Of a stretch of 64,000 nt of DNA, positions 17,286-64,000 are shown in pieces; position 1 is the first letter of the stretch, and each line of letters opens with the position of its first letter. The position numbers were made by a program, and so were the translations under genes. The stretch is from the NCBI GenBank assembly GCA_030704615.1, contig CM060734.1, positions 15,314,001-15,378,000 of the forward strand, written 5' to 3'. The notes below the pieces were generated by a model. That model had not been told where the DNA came from. It saw only the letters and a program-made list of their open reading frames with translations, and did not search any database. This DNA is from Takakia lepidozioides (Eukaryota; Plantae; Bryophyta).

Positions 17286-17314
17286 AGGGTTTGTGTGTGT
17301 TTGTAGTGTTTCTG

Positions 17315-36237: not shown

Positions 36238-36889
36238 TTACCCCCCCCCCCTCTCAAAAAGTTGTGCCCTCACGGTTTACTGCATGGGGCCAACAAACCT
36301 ATGAAATTGGGCATCTGTACGCTGATGAAAATCTTTATGAGGGCTCTGCATATGAGCCCGAGCCTTGTCTTTGGCTGGTGGGGATGGTTGTCGACTTGCT
36401 GGAGCAGATTGTCCTGCCTTGGGATTATATGGTGGCAGTTTCTCATGCATAGGAGATCCTCGTCACCTCTTGTCCTCCATAACTTTCTCATAGTCCTCAG
36501 CCATGTCAAAGTTGTCATCCAATGATCCAATAAAAGTGTCAGAGTCACTGTCCCCCCGTTGGCCTTTCAGAGGCCACCTTCTTCGGAATCACAGGTAGTA
36601 TATTGGGTAACCCATGACTGCCCACCATGTTTGGTATATTATGTAACAGAACTTGAGCCACCTTCTGTCGGGCAAGTGTAGTATATGCCCGCAATTCCTC
36701 GTCTGTATAAGTGAATGGCATGCCCACGAGTTTGGAATGGGCAAGCCATTTCCTGGCCTCATGTCCCTTGGTGAAAATATGTTTGTGATCCCAGCACTAA
36801 AAGGAATCGTGTTTTTCCCAAATCGACTGGGTGTCCGAAACCACTCCGGGAACAACTTTACAGTCGGAGTTAGTACTGGAGAGTCGCAA

Positions 36890-39800: not shown

Positions 39801-40790
39801 AAACATGATGTGGTCGGGCTTCACCCCTTCCCCCATCATTTGCTCATAGGTCTCCAAAGCCTCCACCCCGCGCCCGTGCTGTGCATATCCTGCAGTTATT
39901 GCACTCCACGATACCAATTTTCATTTAGCCATATTGTTGAACACTGCCTTTGCATCCTTGATGCACCCACATTTGGCATACATGTCCACCAGGGCAGTCT
40001 TCAGAATGACATATGATACAATTCCAGCTTTGATGATTCACCATGGACCTCTTTCCTCTTTTCCAGGGCTCCCAGGCTTGCACACACATTGCAAACAAAA
40101 ACAAATGTGATTTGGTTGGGCTTCACCCCTTCGCGCAGCATTCGCTCGTATGTCTCAGCCAAAGCATTCCTACCACACCCATGCTTGGTAAATCCTGCCA
40201 ACATTGTATTCCACATGATCAAAGATCGTTGAGGCATTCCGTTGAACACTTGGTGAGCATTCATGATGCTCCCGCACTTAACATATATGTTGACAAAGGT
40301 GTTGAGGAGAAAAACACTCGGCATGAATCCACTTTGGATAATGTGGGTGTGCACCTGCTTTCCAGCTTCCAGACCTTTCATCTTGATGCACTTAAGCAAG
40401 AGACATACACACATATCTGAATCTACTGAAATGCTCCTTGGTTAAGGTCTGTAGAGCCTCTTTCAGTCTGTCTGCCTCACAAAGCATCTTCACATGCCCA
40501 GAGCCAGAAGAGGCATTATGGACTCCCTCTCTTGATCCTCTTTCAGAAGCCAACGAGCTAACTTACAAAATTCAATATGCGTCTCAGGGCCGAGTCTGAT
40601 GAGAGGGAAAAACAAGCTGAAATAGGTTGAAGAAGAAGGTGCCCTCACCACATTGTCCTCCACCTTGTGTCATGGCCCATGGAGGATTTGACTTACCATC
40701 AACCCAGAAGGACCTCTTGTGTGTGTTGCTTGTGTCTGTAGTCAGATAATGTCGGATTGGTCTGTGAGAACCAACACAGTGCAGCTGAGC
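36890..40790 (-). pseudogene. Cluster 2 of PLS-class PPR pseudogene fragments with PDF-motif exons; the best-preserved PPR array is 38925-40550
   Basis: HVKMLCEADRLKEAL...GKQVHTHIIQSGF...YVKCGS, then repeated P-L-S units; PDF exon TNPTLSDYRHKQ...WVDGKSNPPW at about 40650-40762. Confidence 0.88.
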
Positions 40791-42319: not shown

Positions 42320-43400
42320 GTAGGAGATGGCGCCAACATGTTCATCCAAGTCCATCCTAGGATGGAAAAACGGCGCCGAATTTCCATGTGTGTCTCATGG
42401 AGTCGTGTTGGGGGGAGAGGGCTCCACGTGGATGCCAGAGTTCATCCCCCGGATGGAAAAATGGCGCCGAATTTCCATCCGAGGGGGCTGGGATGAAGTC
42501 GTCTCGGGGGGGAGAGGCCGACACGGGGCTGCTAGAGTTCATCCATGGAAAAATGGCGCCAAATTTCCATCCGAATTTCAGTCGTTACTTCACCTTTTTC
42601 GAGTTTTTTTGTATAATCTGACCCTGAACATACAGTTTTCTCCCTCCGGACCACTTTTTGTGTACGTTATCCCTACAAATTTCATCCACTGGATGGAAAT
42701 TTGGCGCTATTTTTCCATCCGAGGGCGCTCCGACTTATCCTGCCGATGGAAATTCGGCGCCGGTTTTCCATCCGAGGGAGCTCCGACTTCAACTTGCAGA
42801 TGGAAATTCGGTGTCGGTTTTCCATCAAAGCGCCTGTGCATGACTACGTCTCGGTTGGAGGGAGGGCCACGTGGCGCTCCTACTTCATCCGCCAGATGGA
42901 AATTCAGCGCCATTTTTCCATCTAGGGGATTGTGGATGAGGACGTCTCGGGGGGAGGGAGTGCCAGTTGGCACTCGGTCTTCATCCGCTGGATGGGAATT
43001 TGGCGCCGTTTTTCCATGCAGCGGCTTGTGGATGATGCCATTAGGGGTGGAGCGAGCTCCACGTGGCGCTCCTACTTCATCCGCCGGATGGAAATTCGGC
43101 ACCGTTTTTCCATCCAGGGGATTGTGGATGAGGACGTCTCGGGGGGAGGGAGTACCAGTTGGCACTCGGTCTTCATCCATTCGGCGCCGTTTTTCCATCC
43201 AAGGGATTCTGGATGAGGACGTCTCGGGGGGAGGGAGTTCCACTTGGCGCTCCTACTTCATCCGCCGGATGGAAATTCGGCACCGTTTTTCCATCCAAGG
43301 GATTGTGAATGAGGATGTCTCGGGGGGAGGGAGTGCCAGTTGGCGCTCCGACTTCATCCGTTGGATGGAAATTCGGCGCCGTTTTTCCATCCAGCGGACT
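42320..43400. repeat. Array of about 12 imperfect 30-bp palindromes (GGATGGAAATTCGGCGCCGTTTTTCCATCC) within ~53-97 bp units
   Basis: Three copies (42361, 42451, 42544) in one orientation and about nine (42691-43390) in the other. Confidence 0.9.
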
Positions 43401-45632
43401 GTCGATGAAGTCTCGGGTGGAAGTTGGGACAGGTGGCGAGCTCCATACCTATGACATTGAAGGGCGCCGACCAGCATTCATTGTCCGCAACCGTTGGTTT
43501 TGAACAGGACGTTCCGCACGGATTCCGCGCTGCCTTCTCGGATACGCATGGAACCCCTGACGTGACGGGTGGATGCAGTTCCACTCGAGGCCTGTACGCA
43601 CGCATTCTGTGGGAGATTTTTCTGTTACTCGGACTTATGCCGCATGGAGTAGGTCTTGGCTCTCCTGAGAGAAACCCCACATCCAGACCGCGGCGCAAAC
43701 TCAAACCTTTGTACTACGGGACGCGTCCAACGTCTCGCATGGCCAAACTGAAGCTCCAGCAGGAGATCCCCTTGTCTTGCTCACAACCCGTGCCAACTGA
43801 AGCCGAGCACTCTCAGGCGAGCCCCTGCTTCCTCCTCTCTATGTAGCATGTGTGGTCGTCTGATTGGCTTTGTTTTGTTTGTTTTGGCATCCTTCTACAT
43901 GTGCTTCTGCGTGTGTTTTTAAGCCTTTACTTGGTTTTTCTTTCATGGTTGTTCCATGCCACTCCCTACTCTGCAGTGTAGGTGGGGACCTACTTCCCCT
44001 AAACCTGGCAGTTGGATTGAGCTGTCTGAAGCAAGGTTGCTCGAGCTCCACGGCTGGTTGATGTCCCATTGCCCGGAGGGCAATTTCATGTGGAGGAAAG
44101 TGACTTGAGGACGAGTAGGAGGGGCTGGTATGGACTTATGGACGAGAGCCCAAGTGGAGGGCGCCGCATAGAGTACCATTACTTGAGTCGATAGAGCATC
44201 CCAAGAACTCTCACATTGAAAGGTTGATCCCATCTTACCATTTCACCATTTATGTATGTGATTCATTTATTTTCCAGGCAAAGCTTGAAGTTGAAATTAG
44301 GCCCTCAAAAGAGGAGTGTGCATTGTGGAACCGCAGTCTGACAGTCATTGGCAGCAGTCTGCGGACCACGTGCTTCGCATTTTCGGGTCGCCAAAGCGCA
44401 CTAGAAGAAAAAACAGCTTTTTCCACGGCTTTTTTCACACTTTTTTCCGTGGAATCCGCCCCAGTCCACACCTGCCGTGGGTGTAAGAAATGACGAGTGC
44501 TTTTGGACACCCCATGGACGGCCTGGCTCTCGGGTGGCCCTGTGGAGAAGTCCACGGGTGGCCTTTTTCACGGGGTTCATGGCTTTTTCCACGAGCGACG
44601 TGTGCTTTGGCAAACACCACCACGTGGATCATAGATGTACAAAGGTGTGGACTTGTCCACACCTACGGGAAAACCATGCGACTGCCTGTCACCAGGGTTT
44701 CACGACATCTGGGCAACGGTGTGTGCAACACGTGTATTTTTGTGGGGATGACACGTGTATGGAGACAAAGAGGAGATGTGCACTTATGTGGAGCGGACAT
44801 CTGGCGTGGCATGTGGGTGTGAAAAAAGCCATTCGGTGTGAGACCATCCACTGGCTGTTTTCACAACTTCAGCAAGTTTGGGGGCCACATGTTCCGTGGC
44901 AAACACCGCCACGTGGATCCTAAACATACAAAGGGTGGGACTTGTCCACACCTACGGGAAAATGATGCGACACCCTGTACCTGGGCTTGACGACATGTGG
45001 GCAACGGTATGGGCAACGCGTGTATTTTGGAGAGGACGGCACGTGGCGTAATCTGCATGGAGTGGGTGTGTAGTATTTTACTGCCTATACTGTAGGTCAT
45101 TCCACATAGCCACAGGAGCATACCATAGTGGGTCTGAAATATTCTACTGCTGATGTTGTAGGTCATTCCACAAAAATGTGGAAGATGCCACAGGCAAGCT
45201 ACGGTTGATTTCACATATTGTGACGTCATGGTGTGCACAATTATTCCATAGGCATCATGATCATATCACAAATCGTGATACTGTCCACACTGTCAGTTTC
45301 ACAGTCCATGTGAAATATGACTCATATACATAAACACAATTCCAAAGCACTGCGGCAACAACCTGCTCATGACATGTACAATTGACTAAGCATGGCCAGA
45401 ACAATAGAAAGAATGACCAGATGCAAGGGTGCTTCAAAGTTGGGTGCGCCCCTTCATTGCCCAAATAAAGTTTAGTCTGAACATGCAAGTATTTGCAGAG
45501 TCTGCACTGCTGATCACAACCCCACAATGTACCCAAATCCTACATTGATGCGCACAATAACGAAAAAAGGTGAAATTGATATGAAGCGGCGTTCAGTCAA
45601 AATTGCCTTCAAATTGAGGATCCCCCACAACC

Positions 45633-48600
45633 TCATGTTCGGGTCAGTTTGAGGAACTTGGCAGACCACAGGGCCGTGCTGCCTACAGTGTCACTGAGCA
45701 TCACAATGGGAGGCCTAACATCATTGTTGGGGTATGGTAGAGCAACATCTGCCCCATGTACTGATTCAACCGAGACAACATGATAATCGGCATGAACGAC
45801 ATAAGCCAGCCAGTCAGTCGACATGCCCAATATATGGCCCACGCCTGCCTTCCGTTTGGGTGCATTGGGGTCAAACATTGTGACCTTGTCACCAACCTGA
45901 AACTGGGACAGCCAACACCACCAATGTGTGCCCTTGTCATTTGTTATGCACATGCAACAGTTATGGACAGGGAAAACGCGAGATGCCATCATATAGCCCT
46001 ACAAACAAAATACGGATGTACTTCCACGAAGGAAAACTTACAACAAGTGTCGGCGCTTTGAAGCTTCCCATACGGCTCCCATCAACGTTGCTGGCAGCAA
46101 GTCTTGCGGACTTCTTCCTATTCTCCGCAACAATTTCCCTTGGTGGCTTCTGAATCAATAGAAACCCACACATGTACACAGAAGTCATGAACGGCCTGCA
46201 GGTATTGCATAATCGACTTGGAACAGCACAAGAATATAGGAACACAAGTACTTACCTTCCGTACAACGGCCAATTTTGTTGTTGAATCAATGTTCTTCCC
46301 TGCCCCAACAATAACCACTCCTGTGCCCTTGCCCCTGCCCCTATGTCTTGGGCACTCTGTCTAAGTTCACTGCCGGTGTGATCCTCCAGTACAGGCACTC
46401 CCTTCTCAATAAGGGGGGATAGGTCATCATTGGCACCATAATTAAGGCAAGGATCGTCACATGCCATGTTCTGAACTTTGTCCTCACCGTGGCATCTTCT
46501 TCCACAATACTACTGCCCCCTTTCCTTTGTCCACTGCCTCCACTGCTAGGGCTGCTCACTTGTACTTGTCATTCCACAGTAGTCGCAGGTGGGACACACC
46601 ACGAACAGGGGGCGACAACTCACACACAATGTTTGATGTTGATGGAGATTCATCCCTCGGCAGGTCCAAACCGAGCTTCGCTGCCAATGCCATGTTGAAC
46701 TTGTCTGTCTTAGATACTGCAGCGGCAAACATGGATTTCATTACCTGCAATTCCAATTTGTGCTCCATTGAGCTGGCCTCCATTGTATGTTTCCATCCTT
46801 CCAAGCCATCAAGCCGAGAAGCCAATGCTCCAAGGCCCTGCCACAAAAAGGGTGCAAATACGATTCAATACATCTATCGCACTAGCCATGCGAGGTAATT
46901 TATTGGACAACAACACAGGAAGGCAAAACCATAAATAATTGACAAGCACATCATTGCAACAAATGCAGGTGGGTTAGTTACTTACAGATCGGGTGGCCCC
47001 TGCTGAATCAGAACCATACCCCTTGTTGCTATTCTCTCCCAAAATTTCGGATAGAAGTGGAGGACGACCACTTGTCTTAGCCTACACATGGACAGGATAT
47101 GGGAATATTAGTGCCATCCTCTAAGATGTACTCATAAGACGTTGTTTGCCGTAGCCTTGTGGCCATTGACCCCGCGCCCAGTTTGAGCGGGAAAAAAAGG
47201 GACAGAACCTACCTCTGTCAGGGGCTGACGTTGGTAGTAAGACTTACCTCCATATAAAGAATTAATCTGGGTTTTCCAAATATCCTCCAGAAATCCCTTC
47301 ATACAAGCATCAATCTGCTGTGTGTGATTTGCCCAAAAACTAGGCCTCAGGAGGGCCTGGGCTTTTGGCTCAGCCTCGAGACTTTCAAAGTTGGTAAACA
47401 GGGGTACAGGCACAATTCCCTTAATAAATTTGAAGAGAGCGTCTCTTTGGTGAGAGAACCCCGGACAGTGTATCAGAAAATGAATATTGTCTTCAGATTG
47501 CCCACACAACGGGCAATTGCACTCTCCCTTTCCTCTCTGCTTCTGTTTGCTGTTCAAAGGTAGGCTTCCTGCCTTGAGTTTAAATTTCAGTCTAGTGCCG
47601 AGAGTGGGTAGACCCTTGAGGTCATCCAAGATGTCCTCCCCCATGTCACAGACTGGAAACAAGTTCAGGGAAGTTTTCTGCCTAACTTCATTTTCATCAG
47701 ACAATCTCATGGCAACAGACATGGCTGAGGACACTACAGCCTCCAAGTCAGATTTATCCAGCAGGGTCAAGACTTGCGGATCCAGGTCCAGGTCCTTGAG
47801 GATCTCTTCTACTCTCTTCTGCCAGGACTTAGCCTGTTTGACAGGGCGGTCCTATTTCCAAGATAGAGAGTCGATTAACTTAGGATATCTAGTGTTGGGC
47901 ATATGTTGCAGCTGACCCCACCATCTGACCTTGAATTCATCTCGTTGGGAGCTTAAGGACGGAATGCCAAACTCACCCCGAACAGCCACATTGGCTGTTT
48001 TGGAGCATGCTGACATACACTCCTTAAGCACCCCCACTTGAATGGATTCTAGAGACTTAGCCTGGTTGGAGTTATCAACCCATATAGCAGATCCGTACTC
48101 CAAGGTAGGTCTAATAATGCGACAAAGCATGGTTTTCTTAACCTCAGAGTTGACCCCTCTGCAGTGGAAAAATTTAGTGAGCCCCAGAGCTTTGCCCTTG
48201 CCAGTTTGAACAACTTTCCGGATATGTGCATCCCAATTACAATTGGAGGAGAACTCAACGCCCAGGTAAGTGTAGGAAGGGAGGACCGGGATCTCTTGGC
48301 TACCCCACTGCCACTTAAGATCACTTCCTCCCTCTCCTCTGTCGTTGAATGCTACCACTGCACATTTGCTGACATTAGCCTCTAGCCCCCAAAGATCAAA
48401 GTATCTCTTCGCGCAATCAATCAACTCCTGGAGATTGGTTGGAGTCTCCCCTATGCCTGCGAAGTCATCCGCAAACATAAGGGCTGGTATGGTGGTATCA
48501 CCCACCCTTAACCCAAATCCCTCACTTTCCACATCCTCGAGGAGTTGATTGATGAAAACATTGAAGAGCAGAGGGGAGAGAGTACATCCTTGAGCTACAC

Positions 48601-51600
48601 CTTGGTCTATGTCAAAGAAGTTGGACTTCTGTCCGTTAACAGTGACACAGTTTTTGGTGTGAGCATACAAGTTGTGGACAACTCTCCACATCTTTCCCTT
48701 GATCCCACAAGACCATAGGCGGAACCATAGGCCATCTCTCCACACTGTGTCATAAGCCTTTTTGACATCCAGGAAAAAGACATAAGTGGGTTTCCCTTCT
48801 TTTCTCCTTCCCTGGATAATCTGGCTTAGAGTGAAGATATGATCAACACATCCCCTGTTTTGCCGAAAGCCAGCTTGGCCTTCGTGGAAACAACCTCTAG
48901 ACTCCAGATCAACCTCGAGACGAGTACTTATAACTCTGCAGAATGTCTTGCCAACAGCATTGAGGAGCGTGATGCCACGGTAGTTCCCCGGTTCTTCTCT
49001 GTCACCCTTCTTGTATAGATTGACAATGACCCCCTGTCGCCAGCGAAAGGGGATCATTTCAGTCTTCTAGATAAGGTTAAAGAGGAGAACTAGGGCCTCT
49101 ATCATGGGATCGCCACCGTGCTTGATAAGCTTGTTGACAATACCATCAGGTCCACCAGCTTTATATCCATTTAAATGTTCAATTGCTTCCACAATCTCTG
49201 AAGAACTAATGGGAGCATTATAAGCCATTGAAATATACTCCAGTTCATCAGGGCTGTTTTGAATCATAGGAACAGTTTTTCCAACTGTGTCCCTCCATTT
49301 AGTAGAAGACCCATCACTGTTAGACCTAGAAGTTCTGCCAAGGATACTGTAGTGAGTTTCAAAGGTTTTGACAATGTCAACCGATGAAGTCACCACTGCA
49401 CCTTTAGTAGTCTTCAGCGCTTGTACTTGCTGACCCATGTAGGCATATTCTAAAGACGGAAAGGCCCCAAGCTTTCCAACTAAATCCAATGCACTACCTT
49501 ACCTGAAGCAAAGCGCTTCAGGTCGAAACAAACAAGGACACGAGGTCACAAGGCCGGCATTTAGTCACAGAGACATTAATGTACTCCCGTTTCAAGTCCA
49601 CCCAATGTCAATAGGCTTCCTAGAGGACAGGGAGAATGCCATCCTCTAAGAGTAAGATACAAATGACAAGATACCTCACTACCTGAATATATTGGCAATG
49701 TCATGAGACAGGCAGATTTACCAGACGTTCCTCAACACCGCTAAGGCCACTGCGTCCAGATCTCGAAGGGGCACCAACATGTCCCCGTGCATGCTTGCCA
49801 TTATCACGACTCTTTTGCCATTCGGGCGTGTTCCAATGCCTCACAAGTTCTGCCCAAGTCTTGTCCGCAACATAGTGGGGCTTAGGTTTGCCACGGGAGT
49901 ACACTTTTCTAAACAGTTTGATGCGCTGGTATTTAATGACGCCTCCAATCTCAGTTCGAAGTTGGGCGCCAGTTATCCCAGGAGGTAAATATTCCCAATC
50001 ATCTGCTAATAGTTCACCCACCTCGTCAATCAGACTTTGAGGTTGAAGATGGATGGGCACAGAACAGTCCAGCACACGTTGGCATTGCCCTCGCAGGGCT
50101 GCCAGCCAGTCATTCCGTGCATCCCCGCATGGGCCCTTTTTGCCACACGCAACTATGAATCTCTTTTGCCCAGCAGCAACATTTGCACAAGACGTTTCCT
50201 TCAACCCTCTCCGTGCTACTCTCCTCGCCTTGCGCAAAAAATTGGCTCTGTCCTTGCCAGTCAAATGTTGCGCATCTGGAGTAATATTGGAATCACGGGC
50301 CTCCTCTCCTCCCTCACAACCTGCAACATGGGGCCCTTCAGGCGGACATGAACCCTGCCACGCACCAACGTGGGGTGTGGGGTGGGCAGGAACATAACCT
50401 GTGCTTGGAGTTGGTGAGCTTGGGAATTGAAGAGGCCGCGAAGCGTTGCAATTGGGTGAAGCTATGGGCTGCCTGGAATAAGGGCCATGCAACGGCGCAG
50501 TATACATGGGGCTTCTGGGATACGTTGCCTGGGGAGGATGCGCAGGTGGGGGAGGGTTGGGGTGAGGGTACCACACACCTTCGTGGTAGTGCCCATGCTG
50601 AACAGGAGCATGTTGTGCTTCCCCAGTTTGCGGAAATGCCCCACACGGAACTGCACATGACCGGTTCTCCCCTGACGGGCTGTTTGCATTGTACGACTGA
50701 GAAAAGGGCGGGTGAATTTCAGGGGCGGCTGGAACATGAGCAGTCTGTTGTTCATACTGTGCATACCTCTCAATGCCAGGGGGATAAAACGCACCAGTGT
50801 TACGTGGAAAGGAGGGAGGGCCTCCTCCATCCGGGGTTGGTTGAGGACGTGGGGAGGGATGGTTGAAGACACCTGCCGGAGCAACTCCCTTCTTCTTTCT
50901 CACTGGATCCTGCAAATCAACATGTGGGAAAGAGTTATGTAGGAAGATAAAGCATGAACATCATGTAGGATACATCAACAAAAAACGCGCTCTATAATAT
51001 ACATACATTGAATGCAGCAGAAATCGCACCCAAAATGCATTTAGGTCTGATCCATTGAACACGCCAAACGTCACTGGGAAAGTCCTCCTTGTATGTTTCG
51101 ACCCTCTTTTGGGGTTCTTTGGGGAATCCCTTGTAGGCACAATCTGGCCCCGATGACCATCGTACATATCAATGAGAGTACAATATGATAATGGCTAATA
51201 ATGGCTTCACATATTATCAACATTTGACAATAGAGGGGGCAGGAAGATGGGGGAGGAAGAGTTGTGAGCGCCCCCTCTCGGACATGGCTGGCTGATGAGG
51301 CGGTGCTCTTGGGGGTTCCTCCTCTCCCACTACAATTTCTTTCTTGTTGCAACATGACACCACAATATGCAGCCCCCTACCTGTGCAGGTCCCTCCCTCC
51401 CACAACCCCCTTTGTGCTTTTTGGGTATTAAGACAGGCCATCACAAGTTTGAACCTCCTGTGAGGGAGTCAGCCATCTGCAGAGTTGCATTTCTCATGGC
51501 ACAAAATGGAAAAATGTATAGAAGACTTTAATAACAGATTTGGGTTCCAAGGAATAGACGGTAGATAAACCCTGTATCATGAGGTATAGAGGGCAAGAAA

Positions 51601-52459
51601 GTGGTGCTTCATCCTGCTAGTGGAAAATGGAAAAAACTGTTGGGACCAAAAGGAAAAACAAATAAGAAGATGCAAATCCTGCCACAAACCTAAGAAATCA
51701 GTACAGCAAATGCCCACTTACCTCTCGTGGAAGAGGAGCTGGCCGTTTTGGTGCCCTCGGAGCATGCGTTGCATTGGGAGGCTTGGTCAGTCCACATGCA
51801 CCACTGATGTAGTTCTCCAAATCTGATACCTTGTCCACATCATCTCCATCCTCGTCCTCCTCTATGTCCTCGTGCATTTCCTCCTCCGAATTGTCGTCAT
51901 CATCTATGTTGTAATCCTCATCGAGCTCCTGATCACGCTCGTCGAGTTCCTCTGCCTCAGAGCCCACCGACTGGGGAGTCTCGGGCTCTTCCTCCGCCAT
52001 TGAAGGTAATGCTAGTTCTTTCAAGTGCCCACTTCGTCGAGGAGGCCCGTTCCACACAACTTTGGAGCTCCTAGTCGGCCGTTGTACACTCCTAGCTATG
52101 CTGCGCACACATTTCCAAAACCCTGTGTGAATCTTGCCCTAAACAAAAGGCGATCGTGAAAGTGCCATCACCATGAAACCTATGGGAGGGAAAAGCAGTA
52201 GGCTAATGTGGTGGGAAACCCCTACTCACTACCTGTGTAGCATGCATACTAAGGACAAGGGTGATCTGCTCACCTGCGCAACGCTCCCAATGTTCAGCTG
52301 AGCCAACGTCTCCTTGTTGGCCGCTATGCGCCTCTCTCGCTCTTCCTCGTAGGCAGTGCGTGGAGGGGTGTCGGGTGTAGAGGCCTTGCATGTCCGTGCC
52401 ATGGCGGGTTCCTCCTCGTCGCTCAAATCGCAGTAATCGACCTCAAACAAGACTACCAT
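45633..52459 (-). CDS. Multi-exon CACTA accessory gene (TnpA/Ptta, Transposase_24-like)
   Basis: Largest exon about 49722-50909 with KPHYVADKTWAELVRHWNTPEWQKSRDNGKHARG...SGRSG; acidic N-terminal exons; several GT-AG boundaries. The exon set is approximate. Confidence 0.7.
47127..49636 (-). mobile_element. 5'-truncated LINE inserted in an intron of the CACTA gene
   Basis: 15-bp TSD TGCCATCCTCTAAGA at 47112-47126 and 49637-49651. Confidence 0.93.
47132..49489 (-). pseudogene. LINE ORF2: RT and C-terminal Cys/His motif, in three ORF pieces
   Basis: KAGGPDG, YKKGD...NYRGITLL, FLDVKKAYDTV, GVAQGCTLSPLLF, LMFADD, CPLCGQSEDNIHFLIHC. Confidence 0.95.
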
Positions 52460-52628
52460 GATCTACTGATCAAACAATAGAAGGAGCGCATGTAGGAAAC
52501 AAAGGGGAGGTGGACCCGCCATACGAATACTCCAATGCCTGCAAGCACAAACGTAGGTTCCCCACATCCGAGCACTCGCTGACTTCCCACTTCAAAAACT
52601 AGCCAAACCCAGGAGCGTTTCGTGGGGG

Positions 52629-53110
52629 ATGAGAGAGGCCGGAACTAGAAACACCCGGCGCCGCACTGCGGTGCCCCACACTGACGCAAGACTTTGGCAA
52701 ATCGAGGAACGACGTGCAACTAGACTGGGTATTTCAAAGATAATGTGTCCCTGCAATGACTGCCATGGGGGTCGACTCCAATTTGTGGAAACTGCCAAAT
52801 TGCATTTGCTTGCCAATGACCGAGATCCACTGTTGGGTTATCCCATGGTGAGTGACGTGCATCTCTCGCCTCACTTCTCGCAGACATAACTTAGGATGAA
52901 GCCCTTAGAATGGTAATGTTGAACGGCCCTCCACTGTACATGTACGGTGGACTACTGTTGGAAACTAGCACGGTCAATTTGGAGATTCCCTGTTTTATGC
53001 AACACGTTACATTTTGGACAAGACTATACTCTTATAGTTTGCAGGTGAACATGCAGGTGGAGAGTGTCGACTCCGAAGACGAAGACTTTGTGGAAGAACG
53101 AATGCACCTC
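52629..53110 (+). pseudogene. N-terminus of CACTA TnpD (transposase-associated domain), truncated
   Basis: IMCPCNDCHGGRLQFVETAKLHLLAND matches the CPCxxC...HL pattern; followed by a GT donor and an acidic exon. Confidence 0.72.
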
Positions 53111-53115
53111 AGATC

Positions 53116-54923
53116 TTTCACCTCGTGTTTGATCTTCTTCCCCTGCCAAATCCCTTAATCTTTCTTGCAAAGAAAAGGAAGGTGTAGTATCCAACTCTAA
53201 CTCTTCCGGTATGGGTGATGTACTCCCTGATCTCACTGGTGTGAGAGGTCCAGATGATTCCCCAATGTCTATTCCTCTCTCCCAAAGGTATGGATAATTA
53301 GCTTTCAGATAACTTTCTCTTTTTGCTGAATATCTCTGGAGTCTAGCTTCTCTTTCATCACTCATGTCCCATGTCCTTCATTTCTTTTAATGTGGCAATG
53401 ACCAAAACTCCCTTCTGTAGTATCTCTCGTATATGCCTGGGTTTCTCTCAAGCTTCAATGTTCCTCTGGATATACTAGAAGTCTCCGTTACCATATACCC
53501 ATATGGTAAACAAGTCTGAAAAGCTGTTCTTGGTGTGAGTTTGATCCACAAGATATCCTTTGGAATCTAGTTCTTTACCAGTACAAGTTCCTCATGCATA
53601 TGAGTATAAACATTCACCTTTCTTTCCTCCCAGCTGTCAAACTCTACTCGCTTAATGGATAGCAGGGCTATCACATAAACCGGTGTTGGTAACCAACGTG
53701 CTCTTCCTCTACAGGCCACCTGATAAATCTTTATCACTCCTTTCTCCAGACCCCATTCCGGGTCAGCATCATGCACTCTCTTAAGAATATTTTCTTTACA
53801 ACCGTCTGGCAATTCCAAGAACCTCTGAAAGAATTGTTTAGACAATCTTTCCTTCTTTGTTCCACAGGAAATTTGATTCACATCAAATTCTTTAATTCTC
53901 CAACCGCCATGATCCCACCAGATGCCTATCACATCAGATTGTTCATTACCCAGTTCCCCAGTATGGTCGCCAAATGTCGCGCGGCTTTTACTCACCCATC
54001 CCTTCGCTATCCGAGGGGGAAACTCCAAGATAGAAGAGTTGGATATCTCTAAGCACTCAGCCCGCGTAGAACAATCAGTCATGACCTGCAGCTAGTGAAT
54101 CATGGTTGGGTTTCCAATTTATATTCCTTCTGGTTTTCATATTCTCAGTTCTTCTTTACCAAGTACATTTAAGCGTCAGATTGCTCCTTTGACCCTCTGA
54201 TTCCATTCATACACAGCTTCACTCAAGTCTCTCTACACAAGGTGTTTGTATTGGATAAGAATTAGATTAATGATAATCAGATACATGTTGATGCCACAGT
54301 TTCTCTAATCTACCTTTCTATGTAATTCTACAGCTTCTACTAACTAAGTCGCAATTGTCTCCTCCTCCTCTCTGTAGTATCATCATCATTCCTCTTCTCT
54401 CCCCATCTTCCTCCGTCCGTCCTCCGTGATGTCCCCCCAGGATTCCCCAAGCAGTGATCCCTTTCCAGTCCCCGCTCCTGGCTTTATCTTCCTACCCGTT
54501 GTTCTAACCGTTTCCCTCACTAACCGTCATCCGTGAACTAACATGTTCCATTCGCAGATGTTGTTCCCCACAGTTGTTCCCTGTCCTGCTATCCGTTCCC
54601 TATGGTCGTGACAGCTGTGTCAAGCTGTGACTGGCTGTGTGAAACTGTGACGGGCTGTGACTGGCTGTGCGACTGTGTTAGGTTGTGTCGGGCTGTGTCG
54701 AGCTATGACTGGCTGTGCGACTGTGTCGGGCTGTGTCGGGCTGTGTCGAGCTGTGACTGGCTGTGTGACTGTGTCGGGCTGTGTCGAGCTGTGACTGGTT
54801 GTGCGACTGTGTCGGGCTGTGACTGGCTGTGTGGCTGTGACGGGCTGTGACTGGTTTATGTAAAAAATAAGGGTACCCCTTGGAACCCATAAAAGTGCCT
54901 AAGTCCCAGATAGTCCTCTAACA
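53116..54923 (-). mobile_element. Partial LTR retrotransposon C (5' LTR 53975-54923, PBS 53955-53972, upstream ORF, probable gag start at 53365)
   Basis: TGTTAG...CGACA-TT-TGGCGACCATACTGGGGA; LTR homologous to 35268-36237. Confidence 0.85.
54605..54855. repeat. ~10-bp tandem array (GGCTGTGACT / GGGCTGTGTC) inside LTR C
   Basis: Directly visible; reverse complement of the GTCACAGCC unit in the A1 leader. Confidence 0.9.
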
Positions 54924-57900
54924 TCGTCCACCATGACGGCTGCATGTCTCCACCAAAGTCTGCATGAAAGCTGGAGATTCTCCCGTGCACCTCTCCAAGG
55001 GACACCAATCGACCTTTTCATAGATCGACCCGAGTTGACGTAATTGAAGATAACATCATCCACCACAGGCTCGCAGGTGGGGTCAATGTGAGCTGCAAGG
55101 TCCCTCAACTGGAACTCAGCAACACCAGGAGGAAGAGTGTCCTTCCGCCTCACCAGGCACAAAGCTTCGAACACTCGAGTCTGTCAATAATCACGAAGAG
55201 AGCATGAGGCAAAAGACACAACCTACCTTTTGATTTACTGAAAAACCATGAAACTTTAATTGAAAGGAACCAACTCACTTTCTGCCCCGGGAACTCGCCC
55301 TTCGTAAAAGGCAGAGTATTGATGCATGTCCAAGTTTTGATGACACGAAACTCGGAAGCTTTCATGTAGCTGAAAAGAGTTCTTCGTGCCGACGTGTCCT
55401 TTGACTGCATGAGAAGAAGAGCCCCCGAGTCAGAAAGGAATTTGTTGCTGAATGAGAAAGCCCACTGCCAGTAACGAGAATCCGATTTGTTCCAAGTCGG
55501 GGTCGAATTGGAAGGGAACACATCAGGGACAGGAAAACCGTCAAGAATGTCCAGCACCACAAGGTCAGTCGCGTATGCCTGCTGAACTCCATTCACCCAA
55601 TCTGGACTTTTTGTGACCTTCAGCAAAAAACAGGAGACAGTGTAAGAAGCCAAATCCAAATCTAGCACGAGATCAACACCCTGGACAAGTCAGAACAAGT
55701 GGCCAAACCAAAATCACTCATACAATAGTTAAGACATATGTGCTTACCTGAGTGAGGAACGAAACAAGCATGTCCCATGATTTCGAGGGCACCCCTTTGA
55801 ATGTGGACTTCCTGGACTCCATCATTACAAGAAAACTTTCATTCAGCACCTGACGATTGAACTGTCCCAAAACCCTGGAGGGATGTTCTCTCGCCTTGAA
55901 AGGCTGCTCCCTCGACTTTGATGTTCTCCTATCCCTCCTAGTTGGAGAAGGCTGTCTTTCAGGGACCTCTGACGGTCCCTGTCCTTGAGGAGCTGCACTT
56001 TTCGCCTTCCCCTTTGGATCCCCGACAATCTTCCCCTTTCGTTTTGAAATAGCAGATTTCTCGGGCTCTTTTGCAGCCAGAGCAGAAATGATTCTATCCT
56101 GAATGTCTTTGTCAGCCAGTGGGGCAATTGCTGCGGCGTTGTCGTTCAGGTTTCTCAAAACAACTTCATCGAATGGTGTGTCTTGTTTTGGCAGGTCGAG
56201 GTACCACCCACAGTCTCTGAAGTGCGCCCTGCTCCAGTCTCTGGCAATACCAGCCGTGTACATTGTCTTGTCATTGGAGGGGTCAGCCCATGAGTAGATG
56301 AAGTCTGGGTCATCGCTAAGGTACTTTCCCGGTATGAGGACATGATACATGTACCTGAATCACACACACAAAATCCAGGCAGTCATTCGATCTGAAAATG
56401 AAACAGATCACACATCAGGAAAAGGATATTGAAATGCAGGAAAGCACCACGCAGAAATCACCTTTGCAGTCCCGAATCAACCTTGCGTTGACGCAATGTT
56501 GAATCGAGCAGAAATGGGAAACACAAAATGCGGTGAACTGTTCTTTGACAAGGGCAATTCAACATTGCTTCAACGCAAGGTTGTTTTCATTTACAGTGGA
56601 AATGGAAAACAGTGCTTGAAAACATCCTTTCGAATATCTACTGGTACGGATATTCAACATTGCGTTGGCGCAATGTTGATTTCCTCTGTTGAAACACATG
56701 TCCATGGTATCTGACAACCACAACTTTCCTACAATTGTATGGAAATCGGGGTATTGCTGCGGGACATTTCTAGCAATCCATACCACCAAACAACGTTGCG
56801 TCAACGCAAGTCTGTTTGATGGTACAGAATAAGCTCTAAATAGCATTTCAAACAGACTCCAAACAAACTTTATGTTCATCTTGGCAACATTGAAACTGGA
56901 AATGACAACAAATTATAGCCCAAAAACCCAGGTAAACCTACATAGCCTGGCCCTTCATCAACCTTGCGTTGACGCAAGGCTGATTTTCCTGTCAGTTTTT
57001 CACCTTTCACATGGAGAAAAATGGCATTATGGGAGACCCCACCTATAGGAAATTGAAACCAAAACAACGGGATACAAGCTTGCGTTAACGCAATGTTGCT
57101 CGATTGCACATCCAGAGCCCTCATAGCTCCATCATAACCTGCAAATTTGAGCTGCTATATAGAAAGTACAACACAAGAATGCAGAAACATGCCCTTCAAG
57201 TACCAAATTTGTTTCAAGGAGGTCACACCTGTACAACACTTGTTTCATTGCTTGCTCGTTGTTGTACTGGTTTTTGAATTCGTATGACCTGGAGATTCCT
57301 TTGTCTTTCTCAAACTCCCTGAAGAAGCACTTGTTCCAGACAGCGAGCTTCCATCTCTTGATGTAGGCCTCCAGTGTGATCCGGGGGCAAACCATCTGGA
57401 TTTTGTAGTCTGCCATGGACTCCCCAAGTGCAGCGACTGCACGTTTTTCTAACTGCAACAATAAAGCTCATAAGAATTCGCGAGACATTACGGAGCAACA
57501 CTACTTTCTGAAAATGGTTTTGTGGAAACCATACCTGGCTCCAGAATGTGGCTTTGTGTAGCCACTGGTCGAATGTGTGGTCGCTAACAACTTTTATTGC
57601 TTGTGTCTTCGAGTCCCTCTCAGGAGTTGGGAACATGTTGGTGTCTCTCACAAGTGGATCCGAATTCCAGATCTCCAACCACCTGATTTTGGTTGCATTG
57701 TCCACCATTGAAATGGAAAGGCGATGTAGTTTCTCTTGAGTCATTTCTGGCTTAGAGCCATACTTGTCATAATGTGCTTTCACCTGCTCCAGAAATTTCG
57801 TGCCAAGACCTGGATCTGCTATCCGGATTTGTTTGTCGAATGCACTCATGAGGTTCTTCCTTTTATTGTTCATCTCGAATTTCATCATGTCCTCAAGCCT

Positions 57901-59989
57901 AGTTGCAGACCTCTGCTCTTCAGTGTGGGAATCATAGTACTCAGCTTTCGCCTTCAAACCAGTTTCTGCTATTTCTTGCTGCATTCATAACAGGTAAAAG
58001 AATCAAACACTGGCGTTTCTTGACAAAATCTGCAGTAACAACAAGCAAACAGGTGTCAAGAAGCTTACAGTGTACATGTAGTCAAGAAAAGCCTCTCTTG
58101 TCAAGCTATACCATGTGCTTGTCTTCTTCTCAGCACACCTCTTCATCTGCTGAGGACTGAGCACGTTCGTGAATGAATCCAATGGCATCAGCCCTATCTT
58201 CTGGATGCGGAATAGAATGTGGCAGAGATTGGTCGTCACATGAGAGGTTTCATTGGACCTGGAAAAACCTTCAACTCATAAGTGGATTCCAAATTGTGGG
58301 AACTCGGAACAGACACAATGTTGGCAACTTACTTGTTTATGTCGTGCATGGCTATAAGGAGCTGTGTGACACGTCCTTTGTGGTCGAGAACCATGGAAAC
58401 CACGCTCCAGTGCCATTCGATGTCGTCCGTGTGCATGCTTGAAATGTAATCCATCCAGGCAAGCAGTCTCTGGTTCCCATCCCAGACAAAAAACATCTTT
58501 CCCATGAATGCTTTTGTAGAGGCCTTTTTGGACAGCTTAAACTGGAACTCCCTGTTTACATCCAGCCAGCATGCATCCCAACTTTGCTCAATGTCCTCCG
58601 TTACAAGACACTCCTCTCCTTTCGTGTTCATAGTGGATACGTAGAACACTGCAGATCCCTTGACATAGCCGTGAACAAAGTCGTTCTTCAACTTCGTGAT
58701 GTCATTCCTCAATGCTGGTCGAACAGCGGGCATGGAGATCATCCTGCAAAGCGGAATGACCAGGTTTCCGCCGGGAACCTCCATTGACAGAATCACCTTC
58801 AACGAGTTCATTTTTTGCCCACCCATAATCTCCTCGGCCTTGTCTTCATAGTGGCCCTCCAATGACTCTTCCTCAAAATCACCTTCTGACACTGCCGAAT
58901 CTTCCCCGACGGATTTCCTTTTTCTTTTCCTCTGCAAAGAATGAATATCCTGTGAGTGACAGATTGAGCTCCCATGGATCAACCTTGCCTTGACGCAAGG
59001 TTGATTGATGGGGATGTAGCTTAGTTTGAAAGGCATCCTGGAATTTCTTTTGAACCCAATATATGCTTTGCGTTGACGCAGGGTTCTTCAGGGAGCTTCA
59101 AATAATCAACTTTCCCTACCTTGCAGTTCATTGTACAAGAATTCGGCCTCTTGGAGTGAACAAAAGAGGCATCAAAATCAGCCTCGTGTCAACGCAAGGT
59201 TGATTCAAGTGCTGCATCTGCTTCGATTCACCTAAACCCTAAACATACACTCTGGAGGTCGGCATCAACCTTGCGTTGACGCAAGGTTGATTAGGAGCTC
59301 TCGATTTGGTGTTCAGCAAACAAAATATCTATTGGAAAAGTAGATTGCATTCTCTGCTTTCATCTTAGCAATTGATGATGCATCGGAAGCATTCATCTTC
59401 CCCAGCTCTGCATAGCTTGTTTGTAGTGCAGCTTTTGCACTATTTTCATGCCCACATCATATACTTAGGAGGTCGAAATCAACCTTGCGTCAACGCAAGG
59501 TTGAAGTCGACCTCTATGTTTAGCATGAAAAAGACAAAAACAGAAAAGGCAAAAGACAGTTCATAGCCACCTCCGGTTTCTTCTTTGCACTTGGTGATGC
59601 TCCTGAGGCATTCAACTTTTCCATGTGGTCTGGAGGTAGCATTCTTCCGAGGAGGTCCCGGTGGTGCGAAACAAGGGCGGACGGCAGAGTTTCCGCGTCC
59701 ATCTCTCCTCCCTGTTCCGAGACCTGGTTCTCCACTCGCAGTGCTTCCTCGAGCCCAGCTCAAGAGGTTGCTCTTTGGTCGCCTCCGGGATCACTTCAAG
59801 ACCTTCATCTCCAAACTGTGGTTGCAAAATCTTGTTTTGCCCTTCGTTCTCATCTCCGCCGGAGGTTTCTTCACCCATTCTAAGTTCCCGTCTCGCCTTC
59901 CTCATCCTCTCCTTAGCGCGTGCCCTTTGCTTCTTTGATGTGAAATAAAGTGTTCTTCGACGCTTGCTTCTCCCTCGAAGTGGGGTCAC
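54924..59989 (-). CDS. Spliced gene: ParB/Srx-like domain plus a C-terminal N6/N4-type (beta-class) methyltransferase-like domain; 3' end cut by LTR C
   Basis: GT-AG exons: about 59989-59571, 58931-58333, 58258 to about 58069, about 57979-57535, about 57451-57229, 56354-55748, 55680-55279 and 55180-54924. Motifs RMISMPAVRP, FFVWDGNQRLLAW, DLVVLDILDG, FLSDSGALLL, WRGARE(K)SPAFMQTLVETCSRHG. Confidence 0.72.
56477..57098. repeat. Six copies of the palindrome ATCAACCTTGCGTTGACGCAAGGTTGAT inside intron 56355-57228
   Basis: Copies start at 56477, 56559, 56654, 56791, 56957 and 57075. Confidence 0.92.
58978..59504. repeat. Five copies of the same palindrome inside intron 58932-59570
   Basis: Copies start at 58978, 59068, 59177, 59264 and 59478. 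Confidence 0.92.
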
Positions 59990-60674
59990 CGTCTCTGCAG
60001 AATCCAGGGTTGCAAGGACAATAAGGAAAAGAAGGAAAAAGAGGGCTAGGGGAGGGTCACCGCAAGGCCTTCAACGCCAAGATGATCGCTCGGAACAACC
60101 TGTTCGCCACATGCTCATTCCACATGCATGGCGAACACGTGCCCATCTAACCGTTATGAATATCTGCGGAAATCATTAGTTCCTCTTCCATCCAAAATTC
60201 GTTCGGGTATAAACTCCTCTCATCCAAAAAAGTTCATTATTGGGTAATATCTTTTGGGATGTTTCAGAGGAATGTCAAGTATGTACAGTTGTACAGTGGT
60301 GCAGATGCCGTTAAAATTGAATGGAAATGGGCATCTCTTCTGGACTCTCTGACATGACAGCCAAATGGCGGCTCTGTCAGTCAACCTCTCAACCAATGCA
60401 CTGTCGGGGCACCTGTGAAATAACAGTTGGATTCTTTCATTAGGGCTGACATTATGCACTCCGCAGTTGGGCACTCTGTCACCATCCGCTTGGTTCGCAC
60501 GGGGACACATTTCTTTGATGTGCCAACCCGCGTTAGGAGATCTGCAAGCAGGACCGATACCTGCAATTGTGTGTAAGGACGTCTTCTATGCAGCCAAAAA
60601 CTTTGCTCTAATACACTCTGCATTCAGAAGCACCATCGGACAGTGAACTCTGCGTTCAGAAGCAACATTGGCAG

Positions 60675-61555
60675 ATGGCCTCCCAGGCCATGGGCTCCCT
60701 CGACGCGGACTTCTTCAGTGAGGACCACCCTGTGCCATTTTCTTACGAGGTGGAAGATGATGGTTTTGCGGTGGTGCATGAACTCGTCCTCGCAACGCAG
60801 TTTCGGTTGGAAAATGGAACTCTATTCCTTCAGAGGGAAGTGTACGATGCCAATGGAAAACTGCTCAAGTACGCGTTCCAGAAACCTTCGCATACTGCAC
60901 CAACCACACAATGGAGAGTGCCTCCAGGCAGATACAGGGTGCTTAGTGCTCCTCTGCGACAGTCTGCAGGATCGTTCGTAACTCCTGGCACGGCAGCATC
61001 AGTGGCCTCTGAGAAAACACCCCCGTGGTTGTCAAGAAGGAGATCACCAATGTCATTCGTAAATTGAAAGCCATGGGTGGGATGGCAGATTCAAGAGTGA
61101 TTTGAGGGGGATAGACTGGAGCACTTTCAATATTCAGAGGGTGGCATTCTTGCCGGAATCTTTTGATGGTAAAACTGTTTTCGAGCTGCCTCCTCCTTGT
61201 CGCGTGGGGGAATTTCCGTCTCCGTCCTCCCTGGAAGGATGGACAAAAAGCACGATGGGCACCCTTGGTGCCACACAAAACACCTCCAATAATTCACAAC
61301 AACGACAACCTCATATTTCAGGCGAACAGTCTGTAATGGGCACCTGAAATGCAAAACGGAAATGTAGACACTTCGCATTGTCAGGTGTGCAAAACCAAAG
61401 CGAATGGGATGGTGTCAGTGAATCCATTCAAGCCTGGGTGACAACACCACCATATCGTAACACTTTTGTGTGCACGTTCTGTAGGGCCCACCACCTTGTG
61501 CCTTGCTTTGTGTGGCGCCATATGTATTAATGTGGTGCATCGTGCAAAACCACCC
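60675..61555 (+). pseudogene. Frameshifted Cys/His-rich ORF resembling the GCM-like N-terminus of MULE/SWIM-type transposases
   Basis: Joined frames read IQRVAFLPESFDGKTVFELPP...GMDKKHDGHPWC...FRRTVCNGHLKC...NQSEWDG...FVCTFC. The family assignment is from memory of similar bryophyte proteins. Confidence 0.5.
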
Positions 61556-61559
61556 GGAC

Positions 61560-64000
61560 TATCTGAGGCACGCACCTAAGATGCCTCCACATGATGATAG
61601 CCCTTCCATTTGACAGATACTCCGTTTCTTGGTTCTTGAACCTCCTCGACTTAATGACTCTCTCTACTCTCTCTACTTACTATCACTCTGCCTCACACCT
61701 CGTACTCATGTTCATTTTCATGATCCAATAGCACCCTGGTGGCGGACGCAACACTTATGCCGATTCGGACGCGGCTTCATTTTTGAAGTAAGTGGCTTCA
61801 AAAGGAGACGTGGAATCTGGATGCACCTTGCTGTTTGCCGGACACTCCAATTCATACACATCCTCATTCATACCTTCTGGATGCGAAAGGGTCCCGCATA
61901 CGGAGTACGGAACGTTGGACTCACTTCCGTGGTAGTCGGAAATTCTTGATGTTCAACCAGACCTCCGTGCCTGCCTCAAACTTCACTTCCCTCCGCTTCC
62001 GATTCGCCTGCCTTTCATATCGTTTCCTAGCTTGGCAATGTTGTACTTTGCGAGCTTTTAACAAACGCTTCGCGTTCTTCCAGTACCGCCGCTACTGCCT
62101 GTTCCTCAACGTCCTGGGCCTACGCCAACTTGTCGGCACCAGAGGTGCTTTTCCATAGACCAATACGAAAGGGGAAACTCCCGTTGCGGAGTGTTTTGTG
62201 TTATTATAACAGAACTCTGCCGCGTCTAAGTGTTCCACCAAGTCTGTTTGGTCTGCCGACACGTAATTCCGCAAGATCTGCTTCACTACTACGGGAATTC
62301 ACTCTTTCTTGTTTGGCCGTCGGTCGTAGGTCGGAAGGCGTGCTCATCTTCAGCCTCGTCCCCATCTTCTTCCAATGGCCCTCCAAATTTACTCGTAAAC
62401 TTTGATCGCGGTCCGAGACAATATCCTTCGGGACTCCATGATGCTTTAAGACGTGGGCGAAAGTAAAAGTCGCCCTGTCTCCTGCGCCGTTGCCGTCCCT
62501 TGGTGGGGATGAATGGCCCATTTTATTGAACCTATCCACCACCACCATGATTTGCATCGAATCCTTTTGACACAGCGGCATAGCAGTCATGAAATCCATC
62601 GAGACGCTTTCCCAAGTCCCCTCTGGAATCGGCAAGGTTTTAACCCCGCTTGTTTTTTTGTACTCGCTCCGGTTTTGTTGGTATGTGGTGCATGTCTTTG
62701 TACATACTCCTCTGCCTCCTCCCTCAGTTTGGGCCAGAAATACTCTTTCTTTAAAGTGTGCCGCAGTGCGCTTGGCTTCGCGCCGTGGCCCGCAAGCGGG
62801 CTATCATGGCATTCCTCTCAGAGGCTATCTCTGATCCCCTCCCTTCTGCACGTAGAGACGTTTTTGCTTATGACCGGAGCAGTCGCTTTGCAAGTGGAAC
62901 TGCGATTTAACCCCCTCCTCAAGTCCTGCATCACGGACTTCGCCAGCTCATCCTTCCGGCAACCGTCCGGATCTTCCTTTGGAGCGCCGTCTCTCCCCTG
63001 TACACACCAACAGAGCTGGTGCTTTCTACTTAATCATCGCCCACCACGTTGTCCCGTCCCGGTTTGTACTGGATATCCACGTCGAACACTGCCAAAGTAT
63101 CTTCCACCTAAGTTTTTTGGGGACAACTTGGGCTGCGTGGCAAATAACTTCACCGTGACATGTCCGTAAACACCTTCACTTGGTTGGAAGGAACCACATA
63201 GTGCGCCAAAGCTCAAGACTTTGCACCCTCCACCGCCTTTCATCTATTTCTCGTGCGTCGGCCACCGTCGCGCTCACTTCATTCACTTTCTTACTTTCGT
63301 ACGCCACTGGACGTTCATCTTGCATCAGTACAGAACCACCCCCAATCGCGAAGTCCGACGCATCTGTATGACTCTCGAACGGATGATCGAACTCCGGTAT
63401 TTTCAAGACTGGAAGCTTCTTGCCTCCGCTGCTTCAATTCAGCAAAAGCTTAGCCACAAAAGGTGTTCCAAGCCCAGACTTTGGATTTACACAGAAGGTC
63501 TGACAAGCAGGCCCCGCGATCTTGGCGAAATTTCTCACATACTTCCGGTAATAGGAGGCGAGTCATAGGAAGGATCGCACTCCCGGGACCGAAGTCGGGG
63601 CTCCCAGTCCAAGATTGCCCTCCCTCCTGTCATCCATTCTGATCCCATCCGGTGTAATCACATGCCCCCCTCCACTTTTGTGACCCCGAATTCGCACTTT
63701 GAAGCTTTGGCATACAGCTTCCCTTCCCGCAATTTTCTGGAACACCTTTTTTGAGGTGCTCCAGGTGCTCCTCCTTTGTTTTCAAATACACCAAGATGTC
63801 GTCGATGTACACGATCACAAAGTCATCCAACCACTCTTGGAAAAGGTTGTTCATCAGCGTGCTAAAGGTCGTGGGAGCGTTGGTGAGTCCAAAAGGCATC
63901 ACCAAGAACTCATATGAACCATACCTTGTCCTGCACGCGGTCTTCTCCTCATCTCCTTCCTCCGCCACTCGAATTTGATGATAGCCGGAGCGCAGATCGA
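61560..64000 (-). mobile_element. Degenerate Ty3/gypsy chromovirus pol (RT, RNase H, INT, chromodomain remnant), running off the window
   Basis: [56 protein letters not shown]...KWKGY. Confidence 0.92.

Follow-up and report, generated by a model that had tools for sequence, protein, structure and literature searches.

A multicopy gene of seed-free plants with ParB-like and methyltransferase-fold regions, likely an accessory gene of DNA transposons, is represented by a dead copy in Takakia lepidozioides

Introduction

Some DNA transposons of algae carry accessory genes in which a ParB-like region and a methyltransferase occur together. In the brown alga Ectocarpus, the curated, complete element Sola1-1_Ec32 bears, opposite its transposase, a gene for a single protein of 1104 residues that has a ParB-like domain and an N4-cytosine/N6-adenine (N4C/N6A) methyltransferase domain and whose proposed role is binding and modification of the transposon that carries it (PMC12477816). 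Plavaka DNA transposons of red algae carry PAG2 and PAG3, which likewise bring together a PF01555 methylase and a ParB-like protein, and inverted-repeat arrays beside PAG3 have been proposed as its sites (10.1101/2025.02.11.637652). Self-binding or self-modification by such proteins is a proposal in both algal papers (PMC12477816, 10.1101/2025.02.11.637652). Here we describe a spliced gene in a 64,000-nucleotide stretch of the genome of the moss Takakia lepidozioides (contig CM060734.1; hereafter the window, with positions counted from its first letter). We are quite confident that it is a ParB-like plus β-fold gene, and it likely belongs to a multicopy family of DNA-transposon accessory genes of seed-free plants.

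The window gene resembles that of Sola1-1_Ec32 in having both regions in one protein and in its estimated intact length, roughly 1100 residues, a likeness drawn by description and not by sequence (PMC12477816). The red-algal system differs in using two genes, one combining the methylase with SET and the other combining ParB with a 2-oxoglutarate oxygenase, and in having its inverted repeats beside the gene, whereas ours lie inside the introns (10.1101/2025.02.11.637652). VANC of VANDAL elements is a further parallel, since it too is encoded by its element, binds family-specific noncoding motifs of that element, and lowers silencing marks; VANC function has been demonstrated, whereas the corresponding function of the window family is conjectural, and we draw an analogy of working and claim no homology (PMC10398659). 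Because ParB plus methyltransferase accessory genes have already been described in algal transposons, the novelty of the present gene is lowered. The novelty lies in finding the family in land plants, in its active-site motif, which is altered in a conserved way, and in a site within the gene that is a candidate for binding. A literature search, with most subscription papers outside it, turned up no publication dealing with this family in land plants, and ParB is not mentioned in the main text of either PMC12973397 or 10.64898/2026.08.24.746577.

Results

Eight exons, spread over about 59994 to 54924 of the minus strand, make up the gene (Table 1). Each of the seven introns begins with GT and ends in AG. 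Spliced in phase, exons 2 to 7 give 801 stop-free codons; the model continued through exon 8, with an X at its break, reads 887 residues, likewise without a stop. An earlier, sequence-only reading of the window had proposed eight exons with GT-AG junctions and no internal stops besides frameshifts, and splicing exons 2 to 8 confirmed this; all of the motifs it had quoted were found in the window sequence. In one contig of run X8, intron 6 (55618-55747) is removed exactly at its GT and AG ends, although the RNA labels of runs X8 and X9 are guesses. Where exon 1 starts is uncertain: 59994 is preceded by an AG acceptor, and the open frame has its first ATGs at 59905 and 59878.

The C-terminal domain is predicted to adopt a β-class amino-methyltransferase fold in which motif IV precedes motif I. 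We modeled a 240-residue stretch of a relative, P0084, with AlphaFold2 from 58 rows (predicted local distance difference test [pLDDT], 85.6). Foldseek matched the model to CcrM with an expectation value (E) of 8e-12, and VIA-align also placed CcrM first (Z, 17.1; root mean square deviation, 3.4; 192 aligned), followed by M.BceJIV (16.5), M.MboIIA (16.4), M.PvuII (15.9), and N4CMT of bdelloids (15.8). The top 11 VIA-align rows were all β-class or type III Mod enzymes; lower down came MT-A70 proteins (Z of 8 to 11) and unrelated folds (6 or less). Together with a profile match to M1.HpyAVI (E, 5e-4), these comparisons bear out the β-class fold and motif order claimed in the sequence-only reading.

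Among the 105 rows of the family alignment having all four positions of motif IV, the consensus is D-[IVL]-P-[ED]. Position 1 is Asp in 89 rows and Glu in 10, position 3 is Pro in 82 and Leu in 18, and position 4 is Glu or Asp in 88; the D-I-L-D of the window is the Leu variant. The aligned ranges begin at model residue 1, CcrM residue 21, and N4CMT residue 97, and if the first 11 residues are gapless, model Asp11 would correspond to Asp31 of CcrM and Ser107 of N4CMT. A motif I-like stretch, D-x-x-A-x-T-G, is present in the 11 rows that reach that place (D in 11, A in 10, T in 9), and an acidic strand end lies behind it in 10 relatives. P-x-W-N is near-invariant, with W in 106 of 109 rows. The domain thus shares with CcrM, M.BceJIV, M.MboIIA, M.PvuII, and M1.HpyAVI the permuted fold (Z of 14.8 to 17.1) and the acid at the catalytic position. 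It differs from CcrM-type enzymes in having D-[IVL]-P-[ED] in place of [DNSH]PP[YFW], in a motif I without Phe, in its 12 to 20% identity, in being spliced, and in its fusion to a ParB-like region. Two eukaryotic proteins, MpDN4MT1 of Marchantia and N4CMT, have the β-class fold, but they retain TSPPY/SPPY and have proven N4-methylcytosine activity, whereas SPPY occurs in 0 of the 105 family rows. By these residues the family does not belong with N4C enzymes of the TSPPY/SPPY kind, such as MpDN4MT1 and N4CMT.

The N-terminal domain likely has a ParB/Srx fold, an assignment made from its sequence. Exon 2 of the window gene has DGNQR, and the relatives P0001 and L006 have DGNHR, at what reads as a Box II GxxR phosphate motif behind a hydrophobic strand. 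GxxR is the phosphate motif of the ParB/Srx fold, in which DGQQR and DGQHR are similar to DGNQR, and the ParB-CTPase fold's nucleoside triphosphate (NTP) specificity is not predictable from sequence (10.1101/2025.10.10.680097, PMC4619093). Among language-model neighbors in the Atlas, an unnamed cluster stood at 0.94, a ParB/Sulfiredoxin cluster at 0.92, and the DUF3723, DndB, and ParB_N sets at 0.89 to 0.90. The ParB/Srx call of the sequence-only reading stands on the GxxR motif and the Atlas neighbors; Pfam, Foldseek, hhalign, and a low-confidence model added no match to it. The ParB exon matched nothing in Pfam, NCBIfam, or PHROGs, and a PDB profile search with it also found nothing. The model of the region, built from 4 rows, had a pLDDT of 44, and Foldseek with this model returned nothing at an E of ≤0.001; hhalign against one plasmid ParB gave a probability of 0.04% with an effective sequence number (Neff) of 1.0. 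Few rows and a low pLDDT leave the Foldseek and hhalign results uninformative about the fold, and the library and PDB searches are likewise uninformative.

A search with exon 7 among 1.84 billion proteins yielded 109 clusters (50% identity) at an E of ≤0.001, most of which cover just that exon-sized piece. A profile built from ten of these relatives found seven proteins, three of them, longer relatives, named Ceratodon purpureus. The three are paralogues, 74 to 75% identical to the first, whose locus tags place them on groups 1, 6, and 9. A scan of metagenomes gave eight loci from 184 stretches, L001 to L003, L005, L006, and L008 among them. One of these, L006, has the ParB-like region, the middle region, and both methyltransferase exons in the order of the window, at 28 to 59% identity per piece (about 35% overall), and each of the six introns projected onto it has a splice signal. 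The two regions that the sequence-only reading had placed in one gene thus recur together in a distant relative, subject to the ParB call. Intron 7 is absent from L001 to L003, and introns therefore differ between lineages. In a rough count over about 190 codons, the ratio of nonsynonymous to synonymous substitution rates (dN/dS) was 0.11 to 0.17 in all three pairs of L001 to L003, by which the methyltransferase-fold domain is under purifying selection.

A homologue search with the ParB exon found none among longer proteins (671 candidates) and one at 92% among proteins of near lengths. No prokaryotic or viral relative was found (0 of 84 stretches, 0 of 160, and other scans; one further search confirmed one stretch and no locus). 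This absence is weak, because the searches need short conserved words, and with that limit the prokaryotic origin suggested in the sequence-only reading found no support. Two candidates were set aside. A weak match at window positions 26910 to 27062 is a low-complexity repeat, where the window model gave no match. The other, L011, is a phage that has no family gene; its 24-residue match to the open reading frame (ORF) upstream of the gene is due to chance.

Introns 1 and 5 contain 11 copies of a 26-nucleotide palindrome (12-nucleotide arms and a 2-nucleotide spacer), an array that the sequence-only reading had missed. With up to 3 mismatches the full palindrome matched 8 times, compared with 0 in 100 shuffles, and all 11 matches to its 14-nucleotide core lie in these two introns, with none elsewhere in the 64 kb (0 to 4 in 20 shuffles). 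As the pattern was taken from these very copies, the shuffle figures overstate the significance; that they are confined to one gene still holds. A search that ignored the CpG and spacer positions and allowed up to 5 mismatches recovered 10 copies, all of them in the gene, and nothing else. Of the 22 half-sites, 19 have an intact CpG, and the observed/expected CpG ratio in the rest of introns 1 and 5 is 0.32 and 0.38, respectively. In 8 of the 11 copies the six bases at the center match GTYRAC, and the spacer is TG in six, CA in four, and TA in one. These spacers are the expected decay products of a central CpG, with the arm CpGs kept, and an asymmetric consensus explains them equally well. Locus L001 has, about 600 bases downstream of its gene (2080-2385), three copies of a different palindrome of 28 to 30 nucleotides in a 139-base tandem repeat.

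We lean slightly toward these palindromes being sites for the gene's own protein. They might instead serve something else, as small hairpin insertions or as sites of a neighboring transposase such as one encoded by the ORF at 60.6 to 61.6 kb. This explanation, which does not exclude the first, is rather doubtful. It would fit the fact that no other intron is as long as the two bearing the palindromes (639 and 874 nucleotides for introns 1 and 5; 74 to 130 for the others), that intron 5 of L006 is short and L006 lacks a repeated palindrome, and that two of the copies have longer hairpin arms. Against it, copies are missing from the other introns and elements of the 64 kb, the flanks are mostly unrelated (mean identity, 0.32) while CpG is kept, and L001 and the red-algal elements likewise pair such genes with inverted repeats.

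The window copy of the gene is dead: it has two frameshifts, a long terminal repeat (LTR) in exon 8, and no 3′ end. Contigs of X8 and X9 have one extra base behind 54977, at the frameshift in exon 8, and contigs of X6 and X7 break or carry loose letters where the frame of exon 1 changes, near 59750 to 59764. The LTR begins at 54923, directly behind G-G-R. According to the sequence-only reading, the LTR cut falls just ahead of motif I. One X8 contig passes 54924 with letters that are not those of the LTR and that we translated by hand as V-V-D-L-S-I-G-T-R-A (from 30 of its 53 loose letters). This matches the motif I-like stretch of the relatives, in keeping with that claim, and a motif of this kind is accordingly found after TCSRHG in uninterrupted copies, where the sequence-only reading had said that its absence would count against the methyltransferase. 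One contig of X9, showing 3 differences, extends another 221 letters beyond the LTR junction, off the window. Within the 64 kb, no match to the exons downstream of motif I was found (best E, 0.84). Near 53102, other copies continue differently at contig ends of X6 and X7, which points to a deletion at this junction. The run contigs include diverged copies of the gene in the species of the window itself; among the best 40 of 587 variants, 15 were exonic, 7 of them silent and the other 8 changing, a set too small and too selected for use. A further LTR at about 35342 to 36237 is related to the one that cuts the gene (75 to 84% identity at both ends).

The window appears rich in repeats, with reading frames of retroelements and long interspersed nuclear elements (LINEs), pieces of CACTA elements, and pentatricopeptide repeat (PPR)-like repeats, and pieces of transposons flank the gene on both sides. 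To the left, across the deletion, lies a CACTA element whose TnpA-like gene (minus strand; PF03004; E, 3e-4) is interrupted by a LINE, with reverse transcriptase at 47852 to 49066 (PF00078), and whose transposase start lies on the plus strand at 52557 to 52889 (PF13963; E, 0.003). To the right is a broken Cys/His-rich ORF that had no match in Pfam, NCBIfam, or PDB. It may be akin to the zinc-finger transposase-like proteins of mosses, a likeness that no search confirmed, and is a candidate transposase of the carrying element. Since contigs of X6 reach from the gene as far as about 60400, the repeated unit continues upstream of the gene. The carrier could be either the CACTA element or the element of the upstream ORF.

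Three other features were observed in the window. Just left of the CACTA terminus, at 42361 to 43391, lie ten imperfect 28-nucleotide palindromes of other sequence with a 96-base period, which could be the end of a larger element. An LTR retrotransposon has a C5 cytosine methylase domain (3509-4447, minus strand; PF00145; E, 1.8e-13) between its gag-like and reverse transcriptase regions, and a second, decayed piece lies near 16600 to 17570. Broken arrays of PPR-like repeats, labeled PPR by eye, form two clusters, at 17300 to 22150 and 36870 to 40440, in both orientations.

Table 1. Positions in the window of the gene's exons, the intron palindromes, and neighboring elements
Feature	Position	Strand	Remarks
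Exon 1	59571..59994	-	Basic and acidic low-complexity N terminus; frameshift near 59750-59764; 5′ end uncertain
Exon 2	58333..58931	-	ParB/Srx-like domain; DGNQR at 58481-58467; Atlas neighbors; DGNHR in P0001 and L006
Exon 3	58069..58258	-	ParB-like region ends; 55% identity to L006
Exon 4	57535..57978	-	Conserved middle region, no known family; 43% identity to L006 and L008
Exon 5	57229..57452	-	Middle region
Exon 6	55748..56354	-	Conserved H-x-x-x-C-x-W-Y-L stretch, then variable linker
Exon 7	55279..55617	-	First half of methyltransferase-fold domain; motif IV position D-I-L-D at 55551-55540
Exon 8	54924..55180	-	Second half of domain, to just before motif I; 1-nucleotide frameshift 54977/54978; cut by LTR
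Palindromes, intron 1	58979..59504		Five 26-nucleotide copies; starts 58979, 59062, 59178, 59265, 59479
Palindromes, intron 5	56477..57099		Six 26-nucleotide copies; starts 56477, 56559, 56654, 56790, 56958, 57074
LTR (TG...CA) in exon 8	53975..54923	-	About 950 bases; followed by a stretch like a primer-binding site; loose contig ends at 53974-53975
Start of retroelement interior	53102..53974	-	Junction near 53102; loose ends there in X6 and X7
CACTA element	44399..53101		Left terminus 44399; TnpA-like gene on minus strand; transposase start on plus strand, cut at deletion junction
Broken Cys/His-rich ORF	60612..61620	+	Divergent from gene; cut by retroelement at right end of window

Discussion

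The reading that we prefer is that of a multicopy gene, likely an accessory gene of DNA transposons of seed-free plants, of which the window holds a dead copy. The intact protein would load on palindromes in its own introns through its ParB-like and middle regions, with loading controlled by an NTP-gated ParB-like domain. In canonical ParB, a palindromic parS site is read by a central helix-turn-helix. The methyltransferase-fold domain, predicted to bind S-adenosylmethionine (SAM), would then mark or flip a base at the palindrome, and this would keep the element free of silencing by host 5-methylcytosine (5mC). The ParB/Srx fold, NTP gating, binding of the palindromes, SAM binding, base modification, antisilencing, and carriage by a transposon are all steps that we infer, and we hold the whole chain, from binding of its own palindromes through base marking or flipping to escape from 5mC silencing, only tentatively. 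That the gene is transposon cargo is a firmer expectation, and we consider it probable: the paralogues in Ceratodon are dispersed, diverged copies are present in the species of the window, and transposon pieces lie on both sides. Overall, the observation made in the sequence-only reading is confirmed, and its interpretation is partly supported.

A number of observations weigh against our reading, and they touch each of its parts. At the N terminus, the ParB/Srx fold itself is unconfirmed, and the Atlas ParB/Sulfiredoxin neighbor has only 135 of 256 features in common with the exon. The ParB exon is reached by one of the eight metagenomic loci (L006), the other seven ending short of it, and the Ceratodon models, which look intact, begin in the middle region without a ParB exon; starting past that exon, they are no test of the fusion. 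The palindrome pattern was derived from its own copies, and seven of the eight loci, each only 1.2 to 3.7 kb long, have no repeated palindrome. One pair of copies has a flank identity of 0.51, so a recent spread as small hairpins is possible. For carriage, no right terminus of the CACTA element is present in the 64-kb window, a deletion junction lies between that element and the gene, and neither terminal repeats nor a linked transposase could be established for the gene in the window, which leaves the mobile-element carriage proposed in the sequence-only reading without termini or transposase to rest on.

In the C-terminal domain, Pro-Pro and the base-stacking aromatic residue of motif IV each occur in 0 of the 105 rows, so that [DNSH]PP[YFW] is not matched; the DPPY/SPPY position, which the sequence-only reading had called noncanonical in the window, is so across the family. 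In the 11 rows reaching motif I, the Phe of FxGxG is absent and the first Gly is often Ser or Ala. The best Pfam scores for PF01555 were 20.8 and 15.7 bits against a cutoff of 26.7; 21 of 23 relatives had no PF01555 match, nor did the window exons. The family falls outside the definition of [DNSH]PP[YFW] enzymes (PMC4738411). With motif IV lacking Pro-Pro and the aromatic and motif I lacking Phe, methyl transfer may be lost. The domain could accordingly be a pseudo-methyltransferase, with targeting as in our reading, that attaches to DNA, to a base that is flipped or methylated, or to a partner and protects the element with no transfer of methyl groups. We regard this as unlikely, though it is a serious contender: motifs IV and I both deviate throughout the family, and inactive N6A-methyltransferase domains are known on DIRS1 transposons (PMC4738411). 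The acid at the catalytic position is nevertheless kept in 99 of the 105 rows, P-x-W-N is near-invariant, the domain is under purifying selection, and an Asp and a Gly on the SAM side are kept. Since these residues are conserved, the domain may still work like the [DNSH]PP[YFW] enzymes. In the boldest form of our reading, the D-[IVL]-P-[ED] domain is enzymatically active, its chemistry changed, and writes a hitherto unrecognized transposon-made DNA mark at family-specific palindromes under an NTP-gated ParB-like clamp. That would be quite unlikely; if true, a bacterial-style parS/ParB switch would have been repurposed in seed-free plants for self-recognition and antisilencing. Candidate targets would then be the adenine of the central GTYRAC or a ring nitrogen. 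The motif of the tRNA 1-methyladenosine-58 (m1A58) enzymes may be like D-x-P-x. An Asp-only active site is described for m1A58 enzymes (PMC5372732).

The absence of termini is also what one would expect if seed-free plants had domesticated the family as host genes and the window copy were an ordinary pseudogene in transposon debris. Intron positions are common to loci at about 35% identity, as such a family would have them, and the intact look of the Ceratodon models points the same way. We find this improbable, given the many diverged, broken copies (frameshifts or stops in L005, L006, and L008), the Leu in place of the motif IV Pro in 18 of 105 rows, the dispersal of the paralogues, and the near-identical architecture within an algal transposon.

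As an accessory gene of DNA transposons, which remains the reading we favor, the gene would bring land plants, among them a moss whose genome has been sequenced, into the class known from algae. The dead copy in the window matters only as a pointer to this family. The family offers a concrete candidate site, so self-binding is directly testable, and its conserved swap of the catalytic motif poses a biochemical question, whether it represents new chemistry or a pseudo-enzyme.

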